DNA from: a virus
Lineage: Duplodnaviria; Heunggongvirae; Uroviricota; Caudoviricetes
Length of the DNA: 6,740 nucleotides
IMG/VR virus record: IMGVR_UViG_2740892212_000008
Direction: 5' to 3' (one strand)
Shown here: positions 1 through 5,856 of the stretch, piece after piece
How the letters are laid out: the number at the start of each line of letters is the position of its first letter
How positions within the stretch are numbered: position 1 is the first letter of the stretch
The notes under the pieces: generated by a model
What the model was told of the DNA's origin: nothing
The model's database searches: none
Seen by the model: the letters and a program-made list of their open reading frames with translations, nothing else
Translations under genes and position numbers: made by a program

Positions 1-9
1 GAGTAACAC

Positions 10-663
10 ATGACCACTATTACCAAAGAACGTATTGAATTGTTCATTAAAAATCCGCTTGAAAACGGGCTTACCCGTGGTGAACAAATGGAACTGGCAC
101 GGATTGCGCTGGCATCGCTGGAAGCAGAGCCGGTGGCAAAGATTATAGCTCATTACCCATTAGGAGTTGACGTAGGCAAACAAAAGTTCGTACAGGCCAT
201 TGGAGAGCTTCCTGACTTTGGCGGATATCTATTTGCCGCCCCTCCAGCGCCGATAGTGCCGGAAGAAATGTATTGGCAGGATGCGCCAGTTGAAGGCAGC
301 AGCAAAGCGGCTGCATACGCTACAGGCTGGAACGATTGCCGCGAAGCCATGCTTCAGTCCGGAAACTTTCGGGAAAATAAAGATTCGTCAACCAATAATT
401 TTCGGAAAATCCCGGAAGCGTCAACCAGCTCTCCGGTAACTCCGGCTCTTCTGCCTGGTGGTTTCACCATTGAGGATGCGAAGGATTTACATGAAGACCT
501 GGTGCGCAGCCACATAAGCCAGGCTTTAAGTAGCGAAAAGATGAAAAAGAAAGATCGCGATGCTGATTTGCGTTGGATCCATGGCGTTATAGTTCAGGCA
601 GCGTGGTTTGTGAAAGCATCACTGGAAGCGTTGCCTGAACTGTCGCAGGAGGTGAATCAATGA
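10..663 (+). CDS. hypothetical prophage protein, 217 aa, function unknown
   Basis: Uninterrupted ORF from ATG 10 to TGA 661-663. No protein family recognised by eye. The stop overlaps the ATG of the next small ORF (ATGA). Confidence 0.6.
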   Translation: MTTITKERIELFIKNPLENGLTRGEQMELARIALASLEAEPVAKIIAHYPLGVDVGKQKFVQAIGELPDFGGYLFAAPPAPIVPEEMYWQDAPVEGSSKAAAYATGWNDCREAMLQSGNFRENKDSSTNNFRKIPEASTSSPVTPALLPGGFTIEDAKDLHEDLVRSHISQALSSEKMKKKDRDADLRWIHGVIVQAAWFVKASLEALPELSQEVNQ

Positions 664-743
664 CCTGGCCTGAGGCATTCACAACGGTAGGAATTGCGAT
701 GGCGGTGACGCTGGTGGTGTATTCGATTTGCCGCTGGGGATAA
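660..743 (+). CDS. small hydrophobic peptide, 27 aa (MTWPEAFTTVGIAMAVTLVVYSICRWG), possibly a membrane peptide
   Basis: ATG 660-662 overlaps the upstream stop, suggesting translational coupling. One predicted transmembrane-like segment. Too short for the ORF track; a chance ORF cannot be excluded. Confidence 0.3.
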   Translation: MTWPEAFTTVGIAMAVTLVVYSICRWG

Positions 744-750
744 AAACGGT

Positions 751-778
751 TTGCGGGAAAAGGAGAGTTAAGTAGAAT
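751..778 (+). promoter_or_regulatory. candidate sigma70 promoter for the hok mRNA
   Basis: -35 TTGCGG (751-756), 16-nt spacer, -10 TAGAAT (773-778). Predicted start near 785, about 113 nt upstream of the mok-like start, which fits hok-family mRNA layout. Confidence 0.35.
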
Positions 779-780
779 TG

Positions 781-796
781 CTGCGGGTGCTTGAGG
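781..796 (+). promoter_or_regulatory. 5' tac-like element of hok mRNA, complementary to the 3' element at 1160-1175
   Basis: The reverse complement of 781-796 (CCTCAAGCACCCGCAG) matches 1160-1175 (CCTCAACGCACCCGCA) with a single-nucleotide bulge. This is the 5'/3' fold-back arrangement typical of hok-family mRNAs. Confidence 0.5.
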
Positions 797-839
797 CTAT
801 CTGTCTCAGGCATGAACACCAAAAGGCAGATAGAGAAAA

Positions 840-906
840 GCCCCAGTTAACATTACGCGTCCGGCAAGACGCTTAACATTAATCTGAGGCCATATCTATG
901 CTCTAC
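840..906 (-). ncRNA. putative Sok-like antisense RNA covering the mok translation-initiation region (boundaries approximate)
   Basis: Expected by analogy with hok/sok loci. A weak minus-strand promoter is present (-35 TTGCCT at plus 941-936, 17-nt spacer, -10 TAACCT at plus 918-913). No clean terminator was found, so this is speculative. Confidence 0.2.
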
Positions 907-1110
907 ACACGTAGGTTAGCCTCTTACGTGCCGAAAGGCAAGGAGAAGCAGGCTATGAAGCAGCAAAAGGCGATGCTTATCGCCCTGATCGTCATCTGTT
1001 TAACCGTCATTGTGACGGCACTGGTAACGAGGAAAGACCTCTGCGAGGTACGACTCCGAACCGGCCAGACGGAGGTCGCTGTCTTCACAGCTTACGAACC
1101 TGAGGAGTAA
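898..1110 (+). CDS. mok-like reading frame: in-frame 19-codon N-terminal extension of hok (70 codons)
   Basis: ATG 898 is in frame with hok and shares its stop, as in chromosomal mokC/hokC and mokB/hokB pairs. GAGG lies 10 nt upstream. Confidence 0.4.
   Translation: MLYTRRLASYVPKGKEKQAMKQQKAMLIALIVICLTVIVTALVTRKDLCEVRLRTGQTEVAVFTAYEPEE
955..1110 (+). CDS. hokD: Hok/Gef family type I toxin, 51 aa, HokD/RelF-like
   Basis: Translation MKQQKAMLIALIVICLTVIVTALVTRKDLCEVRLRTGQTEVAVFTAYEPEE is recognised as Hok/Gef family: one transmembrane segment and the conserved RKDLCEV...TGQTEVAVF core. Stop TAA 1108-1110. Confidence 0.9.
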   Translation: MKQQKAMLIALIVICLTVIVTALVTRKDLCEVRLRTGQTEVAVFTAYEPEE

Positions 1111-1205: not shown

Positions 1206-1463
1206 CCTGGCATTCTGGTTTACAATTCGCACGTCAGCCTNNNNNNNNNNNNNNNNNNNNNNNNNNNNNNNNNNNNNNNNNNNNNNNNNNNNNNNNNNNN
1301 NNNNNNNNNNNNNNNNNNNNNNNNNNNNNNNNNNNNACGCGGATACGAGATTAAGAAAGCCCTCAGCCTCGATTATCGTCACTGGATAATCTATGTCAGG
1401 CTCCCTTATTCCGAACGCCCACCGCGCCCATCCCGCACATACCAGCAACGGATCTGGAGGTAA
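1197..1463 (+). CDS. possible small ORF in the position of Qin-prophage rem, interrupted by the N run; start undetermined
   Basis: A frame ends at TAA 1461-1463, two nt before the preferred GTG start of the DUF968 gene. Only the last 42 codons are visible after the N run and their composition is not convincingly coding. Confidence 0.2.
   Translation: MFFPGILVYNSHVSXXXXXXXXXXXXXXXXXXXXXXXXXXXXXXXXXRGYEIKKALSLDYRHWIIYVRLPYSERPPRPSRTYQQRIWR
1241..1336. other. run of 96 N: unresolved or masked sequence
   Basis: Directly visible. Any ORF call crossing it is unverifiable. Confidence 0.95.
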
Positions 1464-1464
1464 C

Positions 1465-2514
1465 GTGCGGATATTACTTCGACCTGTTCTGGTACCGGAA
1501 CTCGGGCTTGTGGTCCTTAGGCCGGGCTGTGAATCCATGCAAGTATTTCATAACCCTCGAGTGCTGGTGGAGCCTGAACCGAAAAGCATGCGCGGTCTGC
1601 CGTCCGGAGTCGTCCCTGCCGTTCGCCAGCCGCTGGCGGAGGATAAATCATTACTGCCATTTTTCAGCGATGAGCGTGTGATTCGTGCTGCTGGCGGCGC
1701 TGGCGCACTGTCTGACTGGCTCCTGCGTCATGTTAAATCCTGCCAGTGGCCTCATGGAGACTATCACCACAGTGAAACCGTCATACATCGTTACGGTACC
1801 GGCGCAATGGTGTTGTGCTGGCACTGCGACAACCAGCTGCGCGACCAGACATCCGAATCACTCGGGCAGCTTGCTCAACAAAATCTGACAGCCTGGATGA
1901 TTGACGTCATACGTCACGCAATAAGTGGTGCACAGGAACGGGAATTATCGCTGGCTGAATTATCCTGGTGGGCGCTCTGCAATCAGGTAGCGGACGCACT
2001 ACCGGAGGCAGTATTACATCGTTCTCTGGGGTTACGCGCGGAAAAAATCCACTCAGTATACCGCGAGAGTGACATCATACCGGGAGAACAGACAGCCATC
2101 AGCATACTGAAGCAGCGCACAAAAAATTTTGCGCCGTTGCCTCACGCCCACCAGCAACAGAACCCACCACAGGAAAAGACGGTGGTCAGCATTGCCGTTG
2201 ATCCGGAGTCACCGGAATCATTCATGAAGCGGCCTAAACGTCGCCGCTGGGTGAATGAGAAATACACGCGCTGGGTAAAGACACAGCCGTGTACATGTTG
2301 TGGTAAGCCAGCAGACGATCCCCATCACCTGATTGGTCACGGTCAGGGCGGAATGGGGACAAAATCTCACGATATTTTCACGCTACCGCTGTGTCGGGAG
2401 CATCACAACGAGCTTCATGCGGATCCGCTGGCGTTCGAAGAAAAGCATGGTTCTCAGGTTGATTTAATTTTTCGTTTTCTTGATCACGCCTTTGCAACTG
2501 GCGTGCTTGGGTAA
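1465..2514 (+). CDS. DUF968-family prophage protein with HNH-like Cys/His motif (YdfU-like)
   Basis: C-terminal CTCCGKPADDPHHLIGHGQGG...LCREHHNELH is recognised as the DUF968 / His-Me-finger-like signature. A second Cys/His cluster (CQWPHGDYHH...CWHCDN) lies upstream. Preferred start is GTG 1465, 4 nt after GGAGG (349 aa); the upstream in-frame ATG 1393 (373 aa) is the alternative. Stop TAA 2512-2514. Confidence 0.7.
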   Translation: MRILLRPVLVPELGLVVLRPGCESMQVFHNPRVLVEPEPKSMRGLPSGVVPAVRQPLAEDKSLLPFFSDERVIRAAGGAGALSDWLLRHVKSCQWPHGDYHHSETVIHRYGTGAMVLCWHCDNQLRDQTSESLGQLAQQNLTAWMIDVIRHAISGAQERELSLAELSWWALCNQVADALPEAVLHRSLGLRAEKIHSVYRESDIIPGEQTAISILKQRTKNFAPLPHAHQQQNPPQEKTVVSIAVDPESPESFMKRPKRRRWVNEKYTRWVKTQPCTCCGKPADDPHHLIGHGQGGMGTKSHDIFTLPLCREHHNELHADPLAFEEKHGSQVDLIFRFLDHAFATGVLG

Positions 2515-3926: not shown

Positions 3927-4018
3927 ATCTGCTCATGCGTTGGGTTCACAAGCAAACCTCAGGCCCACTGCTTTGCGCAAAAGCAGAATGAGCCTATCAG
4001 AGACAGGCTTAATGATCC

Positions 4019-5068
4019 ATGCTTAATACTGTAAAAATATCCAGTTGTGAGTTAATCAACGCCGACTGCCTGGAATTTATCCGGTCGTTACCCGAAAATT
4101 CTGTTGACCTGATAGTCACGGACCCGCCGTACTTTAAAGTGAAGCCTGAGGGCTGGGATAACCAGTGGAAGGGCGACGATGATTACCTGAAGTGGCTGGA
4201 CCAGTGTCTGGCGCAGTTCTGGCGGGTGCTGAAACCTGCCGGAAGTCTTTACCTGTTCTGTGGTCATCGCCTGGCATCTGATATCGAAATCATGATGCGT
4301 GAACGCTTCAGTGTGCTGAACCATATTATCTGGGCGAAGCCGTCCGGACGCTGGAACGGATGCAACAAGGAAAGCCTGCGGGCGTATTTCCCCGCCACAG
4401 AGCGCATTCTGTTCGCGGAACATTATCAGGGGCCGTATCGCCCGAAAGATGCCGGGTATGAGGCGAAGGGCAGGGAACTGAAACAGCATGTGATGGCCCA
4501 GCTGATTTCTTACTTTCGTGATGCACGCGCGGCCCTGGGGATAACGGCAAAACAGATTGCAGATGCCACAGGAAAGAAAAACATGGTGTCGCACTGGTTC
4601 AGTGCCAGTCAGTGGCAGCTACCGAACGAAAGCGATTATCTGAAATTACAGTCGCTGTTTGCCCGGGTGGCAGAAGAGAAACATCAGCGGGGAGAACTGG
4701 AAAAGTCCCATTACCAACTGGTCAGCACATACAGTGAGCTGAACCGGCAGTATATGGAACTGCTGAGTGAATATAAAAATTTGCGGAGGTATTTCGGTGT
4801 GACGGTGCAGGTGCCGTACACCGATGTGTGGACGTATAAACCGGTGCAGTACTATCCAGGGAAACATCCGTGCGAAAAACCGGCAGAAATGCTGCAGCAG
4901 ATAATCAGCGCAAGTAGTCGTCCTGGTGATCTGGTTGCGGATTTTTTCATGGGGTCGGGTTCAACGGTAAAAGCGGCGATGGCACTGGGGCGTCGTGCGA
5001 TTGGTGTTGAGCTGGAGACCGGACGTTTTGAGCAGACAGTCAGGGAAGTTCAGGATTTAATCGTTTGA
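4019..5068 (+). CDS. DNA methyltransferase, beta-class amino-MTase (probably N6-adenine), orphan
   Basis: 349 aa with catalytic motif IV DPPY near the N-terminus (SVDLIVTDPPYF) and SAM-binding motif I near the C-terminus (DLVADFFMGSGST). This order is the beta-class arrangement. No restriction-endonuclease-like ORF is adjacent. Confidence 0.9.
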   Translation: MLNTVKISSCELINADCLEFIRSLPENSVDLIVTDPPYFKVKPEGWDNQWKGDDDYLKWLDQCLAQFWRVLKPAGSLYLFCGHRLASDIEIMMRERFSVLNHIIWAKPSGRWNGCNKESLRAYFPATERILFAEHYQGPYRPKDAGYEAKGRELKQHVMAQLISYFRDARAALGITAKQIADATGKKNMVSHWFSASQWQLPNESDYLKLQSLFARVAEEKHQRGELEKSHYQLVSTYSELNRQYMELLSEYKNLRRYFGVTVQVPYTDVWTYKPVQYYPGKHPCEKPAEMLQQIISASSRPGDLVADFFMGSGSTVKAAMALGRRAIGVELETGRFEQTVREVQDLIV

Positions 5069-5117: not shown

Positions 5118-5193
5118 GGCCCTTTAGCTCAGTGGTGAGAGCGAGCGACTCATAATCGCCAGGTCGCTGGTTCAAATCCAGCAAGGGCCACCA
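5118..5193 (+). tRNA. ileZ: tRNA-Ile2 (anticodon CAU, lysidine type), phage-encoded
   Basis: 76 nt with canonical cloverleaf: acceptor GGCCCUU/AAGGGCC, anticodon loop CUCAUAA, T-loop UUCAAAU, 3' ACCA. Very close to E. coli tRNA-Ile2. Confidence 0.85.
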
Positions 5194-5200
5194 TCACATA

Positions 5201-5277
5201 CCGCCATTATCTCATCAGGAAAGAGCGCCAGCCTTCGAAGCTGGTTGCGCGGAGTTCGGGTCCCCGAAGGCGGTCCA
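5201..5277 (+). tRNA. tRNA-Arg-like (anticodon UCG), possibly degenerate (argN position)
   Basis: Anticodon stem-loop CCAGC-CUUCGAA-GCUGG and a D-loop with A14 and GG are present. Acceptor stem has one mismatch, T-stem one mismatch, and T-loop is UUCGGGU (G where A58 is expected). Confidence 0.45.
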
Positions 5278-5290
5278 TTATCTGTATCCT

Positions 5291-5367
5291 GCGTTGTTAG
5301 CTCAGCCGGACAGAGCAATTGCCTTCTAAGCAATCGGTCACTGGTTCGAATCCAGTACAACGCGCCA
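5291..5367 (+). tRNA. argO: tRNA-Arg (anticodon UCU), phage-encoded
   Basis: 77 nt with canonical cloverleaf: acceptor GCGUUGU/ACAACGC, anticodon loop CUUCUAA, T-loop UUCGAAU, 3' GCCA. Confidence 0.85.
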
Positions 5368-5407: not shown

Positions 5408-5604
5408 AAATGTCTCACAATTCAGACGGTTGACAGTTGTCTGTTTTGCGGGGAGTTTGTTAAAAGAAACTGGCATGGTGAATCCCCCTGTGCGGAGGGG
5501 CAATCAGCGAGTAGGTATATGGGATAATCGTGGATTCAGGTGCTGGTACTGAATTCACCGGGAGGCACCCGGCACCATGCAATGGCACATAGCGCCACTC
5601 TCCA

Positions 5605-5628
5605 GCCCCTCTCCGGAGGGGCTTTCTT
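5605..5628 (+). terminator. terminator-like hairpin, plus strand
   Basis: Stem GCCCCTC / GAGGGGC with TCCG loop, followed by TTTCTTAT. Confidence 0.4.
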
Positions 5629-5634
5629 ATGGAC

Positions 5635-5663
5635 AAAAAAAGCCCGCGCAGGGAGACGCGGGC
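5635..5663 (-). terminator. rho-independent terminator, minus strand
   Basis: Plus-strand A7 (5635-5641) then stem GCCCGCG / CGCGGGC with 8-nt loop. Read on the minus strand this is a GC stem followed by seven U. Confidence 0.5.
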
Positions 5664-5704
5664 GGCAAGGAATAAACAACAAAACGTGAAGTAATATTTC
5701 AGCT
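5635..5704 (-). ncRNA. candidate ~70-nt small RNA, minus strand (hypothetical)
   Basis: Minus-strand promoter-like element: -35 TTGCGC (plus 5739-5734), 18-nt spacer, -10 TATTAT (plus 5715-5710). The transcript would carry a GU-rich stretch (GUUUUGUUGUUUAUUCC) and end at the minus-strand terminator. No coding potential. Confidence 0.2.
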
Positions 5705-5856
5705 GGCGAATAATATCCGACAGTAATCACTCTGCGCAATAGCGCGGCCTTTTTCGTATTGCGGGCTGTTGTCTCTCTTCTGCCATTGTCCTGTAACTTC
5801 CGGACTTCAGCCCGCTCCTCATTTTACTCACAATATTATCCCGGCCGGGAGGATTC

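Follow-up and report, generated by a model that had tools for sequence, protein, structure and literature searches.

A probable small membrane-protein gene adjoining a DUF551-family gene apparently deleted for its DUF551 domain in an Escherichia coli lambdoid prophage

The DNA analysed here (IMG/VR record IMGVR_UViG_2740892212_000008, Caudoviricetes) is a stretch of 6,740 nucleotides, called the window below, that belongs to the replication-distal "nin"/late-regulatory part of an Escherichia coli lambdoid prophage. At its left end it carries two overlapping open reading frames (ORFs) on the plus strand, both starting with ATG: 10..663, encoding a protein of 217 amino acids (ORF217), and 660..743, encoding a hydrophobic peptide of 27 amino acids. 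Taken as a whole, the data favour the view that this pair consists of a real, autonomous small membrane-protein gene and of a DUF551-family gene from which the DUF551 domain has been lost. The 27-codon ORF itself is, judging from comparison of its alleles, very probably a genuine gene.

Coding evidence for the 27-codon gene

The small gene and its translation signal are located as follows (window coordinates):
660..743, plus strand: 27-codon gene for a predicted single-pass hydrophobic peptide, MTWPEAFTTVGIAMAVTLVVYSICRWG; its ATG overlaps the stop codon of ORF217 (ATGA)
648..652, plus strand: GGAGG Shine-Dalgarno sequence of the small ORF, 7 nucleotides before the ATG and inside the last codons (QEV) of ORF217

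A preliminary description of this DNA, made from the sequence alone, had noted the overlap of the ORF217 stop with the ATG of the small ORF as well as a single hydrophobic helix in the peptide, and both were confirmed. At the junction (CAGGAGGTGAATCAATGACC) the ATG (660-662) lies over the TGA (661-663) in a four-nucleotide ATGA overlap, and ORF217 ends with the codons CAG GAG GTG AAT CAA TGA. The mean Kyte-Doolittle hydropathy of the peptide is 1.98 over 19 residues (residues 6-24). Further features are an aromatic belt (W3/F7 and Y21/W26), a small-residue face (G11/A13/A15/A17) and the C-terminus R25-W26-G27.

By its length alone, the 27-codon ORF is not significant, given that more than 100 ORFs of at least 20 amino acids can be drawn mechanically in the window. 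This background, together with the missing annotation by RefSeq and by the Prokaryotic Genome Annotation Pipeline (PGAP), would fit a chance ORF in a non-coding spacer between the DUF551 gene and hok. However, among the 104 window ORFs of this size that were scored (those without N), it is the only one that combines a Shine-Dalgarno-like 5-mer with a membrane-grade hydrophobic stretch (Kyte-Doolittle value of at least 1.6), and the comparative evidence goes far beyond chance. A scan of IMG/VR with a degenerate DNA pattern covering codons 1-7 gave at least 120 loci; the counts in this and the next paragraph refer to the matches listed. An intact ORF of exactly 27 codons was present in 108 copies (53 nucleotide alleles) of the approximately 113 copies of the family, with alleles diverging by up to ~25-35% in nucleotides. 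In codons 8-27, i.e., in the part left free by the search pattern, the Nei-Gojobori ratio of nonsynonymous to synonymous differences per site (pN/pS) was 0.40 in frame versus 0.77 and 1.94 in the other frames, and the summed column entropy by codon position was 9.5/5.4/16.6, the third position being dominant. Such an in-frame ratio together with third-position variation is the signature of protein-coding selection. With these data, we consider a chance ORF exceedingly improbable.

Length variants of clear family members stay in frame or are ended by a premature stop, and truncated copies are few (one of 20 codons, one of 25 codons, and a W3stop in POCJ13). W3, P4 and A6 occur in all 35 distinct peptides, and there is very little variation at E5, F7, G11, A13, A15, A17, Y21, I23, C24, R25, W26 and G27. 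A divergent allele recovered independently of the pattern (PhiR12_1, MSWPDAIVTLGMVFAAAFVVYSICRWG) keeps W3, P4, G11, Y21 and SICRWG. Searching all collected loci with tblastn revealed no divergent paralogue beyond the WPEAF class. The ORF thus shows the general marks of a small gene, i.e., conserved frame, start and stop, frame-specific purifying selection and a ribosome-binding site. The frame, on whose conservation across related prophages the preliminary description depended, is conserved in prophages and phages and evolves as a coding sequence.

The junction and the upstream genes

In every locus examined, the start of the small ORF overlaps the stop of the preceding gene, either as ATGA or as TGATG, and the junction is constant, with GGAGG (GGGAG in one variant), a spacing of ~6-10 nucleotides and the overlapping ATG. 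The upstream gene itself varies. Among the loci listed (as for all further counts of neighbours), it belongs to several unrelated architectures with at least five unrelated C-terminal tails: ...SVEDVLR, ...WMPLPEPPQEVNQ/RQ (DUF551), ...NDLKNIEQKVNQ (933W p77), ...MLKKKGMNQ (Av-05), and the window's own. DUF551-type tails are the most frequent context, and identical or near-identical peptide alleles sit behind different tails. Only the last 2-7 codons are shared between the upstream genes, and these constitute the ribosome-binding site of the peptide. On its left, the mobile unit thus reaches into the last few codons of the gene before it, which accounts for the ...VNQ ending of unrelated proteins, and the Shine-Dalgarno/ATGA junction seems to serve repeatedly as a mosaic joint.

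Because the ribosome-binding site and start codon lie inside the last 5-7 codons of the preceding gene, the peptide would be translated as the terminal cistron of that message, either through coupling or through direct initiation at the strong Shine-Dalgarno sequence. The small ORF would travel between phages together with its short junction, as a module tied neither to the body of the upstream gene nor to the gene downstream.

The pair had been taken at first for a specific combination of a soluble protein with a membrane peptide. In such a dedicated two-component module, ORF217 or a DUF551 protein would act together with the peptide, e.g., with the peptide tethering or activating a soluble factor at the membrane, in a toxin/immunity pair or in superinfection exclusion. 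The stop/start overlap kept in all loci and the prevalence of DUF551-type tails are in line with this possibility, as is the fact that the in-frame deletion in ORF217 (see below) left the tail and the coupling intact. However, identical peptide alleles follow the unrelated VEDVLR, 933W p77-type (QEVNR/QKVNQ) and DUF551 tails, a near-identical allele follows KGMNQ in Av-05, and the 2-7 upstream codons in common are accounted for by the ribosome-binding site. Furthermore, the peptide gene is intact in the window even though ORF217 has no DUF551 domain, YfdS and YfdT of E. coli K-12 are not accompanied by such a peptide, and no match was obtained in PADLOC, the PHROG functions or Pfam. As the same peptide allele follows at least five unrelated upstream C-termini, the specific pairing is not borne out, and a dedicated module appears quite improbable.

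A further possibility is that the product is irrelevant, and that either translation through the junction matters (e.g., by preventing Rho-dependent polarity or by establishing transcription into hok) or the junction serves as a recombination linker between mosaic modules. Indeed, the Shine-Dalgarno sequence with the ATGA overlap is the most conserved part and marks the module boundaries, and no terminator separates the small ORF from hok. Against this, frame-specific substitutions, a fixed length and the conservation of G11, Y21, C24, R25 and W26 far from the junction would be unexpected, which makes this explanation very unlikely.

Downstream genes and the hok/sok locus

785..1110, plus strand: neighbouring hok/sok type I toxin-antitoxin locus (sok/5' region 785-960, mok 898..1110, hokD 955..1110)

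A toxin locus had been placed downstream of the pair, and it is there: the ORF 898..1110 matches Pfam HOK_GEF (1.5e-22), and the Rfam sok model matches at window 785-960 (L001 coordinates; L001 is the corresponding locus of E. coli O55:H7 DEC5B), starting ~40 nucleotides after the stop of the small ORF at 743. A terminator was found at 1179-1196 and none between 743 and hok, so that read-through into hok may occur.

What follows the small ORF varies: mok/hok at a distance of ~154 nucleotides (37 loci), a 34-amino-acid hydrophobic ORF and then hok (20 loci), a DUF4222-like gene beside xis/int (15 loci), a 77-amino-acid acidic protein in P1-like elements (9 loci), and others. Since both the upstream and the downstream neighbours vary, the small ORF looks autonomous rather than a partner of ORF217 or a part of hok/sok. 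Comparison of the window with a related locus (L002) points in the same direction: the hok regions are nearly identical, whereas the small-ORF alleles are only ~75% identical, which indicates a recombination breakpoint between the small ORF and hok. L002 contains a further tiny hydrophobic ORF (3995-4099) that the window lacks; it lies between the equivalents of window positions 743 and 744. The corresponding insert of ~150 nucleotides with its 34-amino-acid ORF is flanked by the near-repeats GGGGTAAAAACG and GGGTAAAAACGG, suggesting gain or loss via recombination at short repeats.

The neighbourhood of hok raises the question of whether the peptide could itself act as a small toxin that damages the membrane, or as a lysis/holin-like modulator, and in this way, possibly together with Hok, contribute to host killing, lysis timing or abortive infection. 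It has the size of type I toxins, with 27 residues and a single, very hydrophobic helix; hok is found 150-400 nucleotides downstream on the same strand (within 500 nucleotides in 55 of 112 loci); the second hydrophobic ORF of 34 amino acids follows in 20 loci; and the gene is kept in a virulent phage. On the other side, the peptide has no match to Hok/Gef or any other toxin family in Pfam, NCBIfam and PHROGs, its strong constitutive Shine-Dalgarno sequence and upstream coupling differ from the tight antisense or foldback control typical of type I toxins, and no antisense (minus-strand) promoter was found near the ORF. The Rfam sok element begins 40 nucleotides after the stop of the small ORF, the gene can occupy up to 7 places per genome, and hokW-sokW functions as a toxin-antitoxin system when cloned alone (PMC8621323). 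A toxic peptide is therefore an unlikely explanation. For the pair as well as for the peptide, a role as toxin or superinfection-exclusion module, as originally suggested, has no support from homology (no functional match in Pfam, NCBIfam, PHROGs and PADLOC) or from context. The association with the toxin locus is loose: hok is present downstream in only 55 of the 112 loci.

Distribution and annotation

With tblastn, the small ORF was detected in 94 of 50,697 phage records, among them Shiga toxin (Stx) phages (933W, Sakai, Stx2-II, Min27, BP-4795), lambdoid isolates, the P1-like Punavirus vB_EcoM-813R1 and the virulent rV5-like Vequintavirinae phage Av-05. The gene is thus abundant in three unrelated types of E. 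coli phage. Of 5426 complete E. coli genomes, 1726 contained similar sequence by blastn, with as many as 7 places in a single genome; 163 of the places were on plasmids. When one genome per GTDB species was searched with the strict pattern, matches were confined to E. coli, Shigella flexneri, one Escherichia sp. and two tiny contigs. These contigs, assigned to Xanthomonas pisi (L134, 431 bp) and Acinetobacter idrijaensis (L136, 369 bp), most likely represent E. coli phage DNA contaminating the respective assemblies. As far as these searches go, the family is abundant but taxonomically narrow.

The 27-codon ORF is unannotated in every RefSeq phage record and PGAP genome inspected. Note that it comprises 84 nucleotides and the minimum gene length in Prodigal is 90 nucleotides. 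A few submitters named it "bacteriophage protein" or "hypothetical protein". In "extended" annotated forms of 43-45 amino acids, the additional part is an alternative frame of the DUF551 tail; likewise, in 933W (L004, 2034-2504) the p77 N-terminus (MDNSWCVVETVTLDAATRTAAGGE...) is the small-ORF frame extended upstream through an alternative frame of the DUF551 tail (WMPLPEPPQEV...). In an exact-sequence look-up, the peptides clustered with DUF551 proteins of 121 and 185 amino acids; the sequences contain no peptide-DUF551 fusion, and the grouping was rejected as a clustering artefact. A full-text literature search for the peptide gave no match, and neither the hokW-sokW paper (PMC8621323) nor the exo-xis modelling review mentions the small ORF.

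ORF217 and the lost DUF551 domain

10..663, plus strand: ORF217, prophage accessory protein assigned to the DUF551 family, without the DUF551 domain; N-terminal module (about residues 1-45), GWNDCREAML motif region, S/T/P-rich linker, helical hairpin (154-206) and tail ALPELSQEVNQ
620..633 (between 626 and 627), plus strand: deletion junction, the site where relatives have the DUF551-coding segment (alignment with L002)
352..459, plus strand: S/T/P/N-rich low-complexity linker (residues 115-150 of ORF217), defined by composition and a low predicted local distance difference test score (pLDDT)

ORF217, whose start at position 10 is preceded by AAGGAG, had initially been regarded as unassignable to any family. 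In a search of 5.8 billion proteins, it proved to share 97-98% identity, across 95% of its length, with a 289-amino-acid E. coli prophage "DUF551 domain-containing protein"; this longer protein is present on more than 999 contigs, and the exact 217-amino-acid form is rare. The part with 97-98% identity comprises residues 1-206. In the alignment with L002, window nucleotides 1-626 are nearly identical, and then an in-frame gap of 216 nucleotides follows in the window, after which the last 11 codons of ORF217 and the small ORF represent a diverged allele relative to L002. The L002 protein matches Pfam PF04448 (DUF551) at residues 220-285 (E = 9.8e-21), and the 216 nucleotides absent from the window are 72 codons corresponding to this domain; ORF217 has no PF04448 match in Pfam even at E <= 1. 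Given this identity and the in-frame gap covering DUF551, ORF217 is therefore assigned as a DUF551-family gene minus its name-giving domain. Its membership by orthology rests on this identity and on the flanks common to the ORF217 and 289-amino-acid DUF551 loci (DUF4014, hokD, DUF968, RusA). Among all loci collected, only the window and its 100%-identical E. coli relative L001 have the tail EALPELSQEVNQ, and a check of the tails confines the DUF551-less form to window-type sequence. On this sequence evidence, ORF217 derives by deletion from a mosaic accessory protein that is very common in prophages, whereas the deleted form is rare. Though decayed, ORF217 is an unremarkable member of a family already known but uncharacterised, and is predicted to be a soluble accessory protein of the early region.

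The loss of the domain also accounts for the annotation in DEC5B, where PGAP splits ORF217 into a partial pseudogene (10..159) and a misnamed coding sequence (133..663; L001 7133-7663; WP_404852974.1). The PGAP/RefSeq name of the latter, "dTDP-6-deoxy-L-hexose 3-O-methyltransferase", is also carried by a 289-amino-acid DUF551 protein (P0061), and none of the domain searches run gave any support for a methyltransferase. The name looks like a propagated mis-annotation.

The family is highly mosaic. Altogether, 946 protein clusters (at 50% identity), with proteins of 67-585 amino acids, match ORF217 via the separate stretches 1-45, 1-87, 73-146 and 139-214. Among 73 relatives, DUF551 is present in 23, and a dATP/dGTP pyrophosphohydrolase, Ead_Ea22 and Lar domain in one each. 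In their early-left region (ea/exo-xis side), Stx phages such as phiON-2011 have a gene with 97.7% identity to window positions 94-626. A 375-amino-acid relative (P0001) has an internal tandem duplication of VPEEMYWQDAPVEG...TPALLPGG, i.e., of the middle module and linker, which is another sign of the plasticity of the family.

The Ser/Thr/Pro-rich linker that had been described at residues ~115-150 was corroborated: S, T, P and N make up 47% of this segment versus 21% of the whole protein, and residues 120-137 have an AlphaFold pLDDT below 50. The maximum Kyte-Doolittle value in ORF217 is 1.21, i.e., the protein has no membrane-grade stretch. An AlphaFold model based on a shallow alignment was not usable (pLDDT 42). 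The model obtained with the 73 diverse relatives (pLDDT 69, predicted template modelling score 0.32) contains a helical N-module, a confident segment 80-117 and the helical hairpin 154-206, with disordered linkers between the helical modules. In Foldseek searches with this model, the PDB gave no match with E below 4 and BFVD only uncharacterised phage proteins (best E = 0.0096); a sequence search of the PDB yielded noise only (E = 1.3). Pfam, NCBIfam and PADLOC had no match for ORF217 or the peptide, and PADLOC had none for the 289-amino-acid sibling either. In PHROGs, only families of unknown function matched separate parts of ORF217 (phrog_60, 5117, 3323, 660, 14306, 12449). Ead_Ea22 (PF13935), found in 1 of the 73 relatives, had no Pfam match in ORF217. 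Thus, the homology and structure check proposed in the preliminary description led to a family assignment, and the structure and fold searches gave no functional lead.

Proposed function and significance of the peptide

We tentatively propose, at slightly less than even confidence, that the 27-amino-acid MxWPEAF...YSICRWG peptide represents an undescribed functional family of small phage membrane proteins, which would have spread in lambdoid, P1-like and rV5-like coliphages as a cassette of an ORF and a ribosome-binding site in the upstream tail, and would act on a membrane target of the host or phage (e.g., Hok, a transporter or sensor, or phage DNA entry). The peptide is predicted to insert in the inner membrane; the orientation is probably N-out/C-in, to which E5 outside and R25 inside point weakly. 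By analogy with other small membrane proteins, its helix may pack via the G11/A15 and A13/A17 faces, either in self-association or in binding to a larger host or phage membrane protein. Retention of the gene in a virulent phage suggests a role in lytic growth and not in lysogeny only.

Several points weigh against the overall interpretation of the small ORF and against this proposal. A pN/pS of 0.40 reflects moderate constraint only, and the N-terminal motif of the peptide was partly fixed by the search pattern. The narrow distribution implies that many of the copies are linked by recent exchange and are therefore not independent. Since about half of the loci have hok directly downstream, the data would also be compatible with a functional connection between the peptide and hok. 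Early prophage genes are, by our own reasoning, repressed in uninduced cultures. The peptide strings are absent from the supplements of two ribosome-profiling/proteomics studies of enterohaemorrhagic E. coli, which used uninduced cultures (PMC5597208, PMC4765031). Homology to any characterised small protein was not found in Pfam, NCBIfam, PHROGs or PADLOC; the PHROG match of the peptide is phrog_4612 (E = 0.017), of unknown function. The mechanism with a helix partner, which we infer purely by analogy, is the more doubtful part of the proposal. In form, the peptide is like small membrane proteins or type I toxins, but it fails every family test run and would accordingly have to be placed in a new, undescribed family.

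Genome annotation is known to overlook small membrane proteins. The small ORF is present in about one third of complete E. coli genomes, yet it is missing from reference annotation, for which its length below the limits of gene callers would account. It is very common in the prophages of pathogenic E. coli, has also reached phage-plasmids and a virulent phage, and is found directly upstream of hokW in 933W and Sakai Sp5. If the peptide indeed modulates lysis timing, exclusion or Hok, it would be a new player in the poorly understood early accessory regions (exo-xis/ea, nin), which influence Stx-prophage induction. The practical gain is modest, i.e., one gene to be added to annotation and one spurious enzyme name to be dropped from ORF217. 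The family should appeal to specialists in small proteins and in the accessory regions of Stx phages, and nothing so far points to an unusual mechanism.

Genomic setting of the window

Window positions 1-900 are 100% identical to several complete E. coli genomes, e.g., O55:H7 DEC5B (L001), and are present in one full-length piece at >=98.7% identity in only ~8 complete genomes. The gene order in DEC5B is as follows: DUF4014 gene, hypothetical gene, ORF217/27-codon pair, hokD, DUF968, RusA, DUF1133 (Q-like), DNA methyltransferase and three tRNAs. In the window, the ORF 1393..2514 has a Pfam DUF968 match. Positions 1241-1336 are a run of 96 N, where the otherwise 99.6-100% identical DEC5B locus has 183 nucleotides (L001 8241-8423) overlapping two small annotated hypothetical coding sequences between hokD and the DUF968 gene; because the lengths differ, the N-run is a mask or gap and not real sequence. 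Three tRNAs are located at window 5118-5367 (CAT anticodon, Arg-TCG, Arg-TCT). The one with the CAT anticodon, called Met by ARAGORN and Ile in RefSeq, is presumably lysidine-modified. Downstream of them, the small RNA STnc100 has an Rfam match (132 bits, L001 coordinates) at the equivalent of window ~5531-5720. Such a layout commonly precedes late or stx-type cargo. The window and L001 diverge after position ~5630.

Comparison with known systems

The closest known counterpart of ORF217 is the 289-amino-acid DUF551 protein (clusters P0006/P0019/P0072; "PF04448 family protein" AMD43100.1 of phiON-2011), which shares with it the position in the prophage, the tail and the overlapping small ORF; ORF217 differs in the absence of the 72-codon DUF551 domain. 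In a wider sense, ORF217 resembles the beads-on-a-string arrangement of portable modules in lambda Ea22, its Stx-phage variants, and YfdS and YfdT of the K-12 prophage CPS-53. DUF551 is a portable C-terminal domain of mosaic Ea22 variants (Ea22_V2) and of YfdS (PMC10834534). ORF217 has no Ead_Ea22 Pfam match, and the pro-lysogenic role is that of Ea22. YfdT shares the N-terminal module of ORF217 (MTTFT...IALVSLEVEP, E = 0.009) and ends in QQEVK. In CPS-53 (L132, 11512-12235), yfdS (DUF551) and yfdT overlap by one base, and no small ORF follows yfdT: the subsequent sequence, GGTGAAATAATAG, has no start codon at the expected site. The K-12 gene ypdJ overlaps the 3' end of yfdT in another frame.

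For the peptide, type I toxins such as Hok/Gef, TisB, DinQ and ShoB offer one comparison. Like them, it is small and hydrophobic with a single helix, and it lies beside hok/sok in half of the loci. However, it has no HOK_GEF or NCBIfam toxin match, and no antisense RNA or mok-like leader was found. The 34-amino-acid ORF WP_001278454.1 (MSDDISLAMEGALAVVAVVGVYCLVVFLMDRLGN) is likewise a tiny single-helix protein and, where present, also lies between the DUF551 gene and hok; it differs in being unrelated in sequence, annotated in RefSeq, present on ~1000 contigs and absent from the window.

Very small single-pass inner-membrane modulators of larger membrane proteins (KdpF, MgtS, MgtR, PmrR, AcrZ, CydX) offer the other comparison. 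KdpF (TIGR02115) gave the best match to the peptide, at E = 0.11 and 12.5 bits versus a cutoff of 26.85, i.e., there is no sequence relationship, and in contrast to this group the peptide is phage-borne, present in multiple copies and coupled to variable upstream genes. The similarity is one of form: the peptide is of comparable size and has a single predicted transmembrane helix, an aromatic interface and a small-xxx-small face (G11...A15), and, like the members of this group, it is of a kind that annotation misses.

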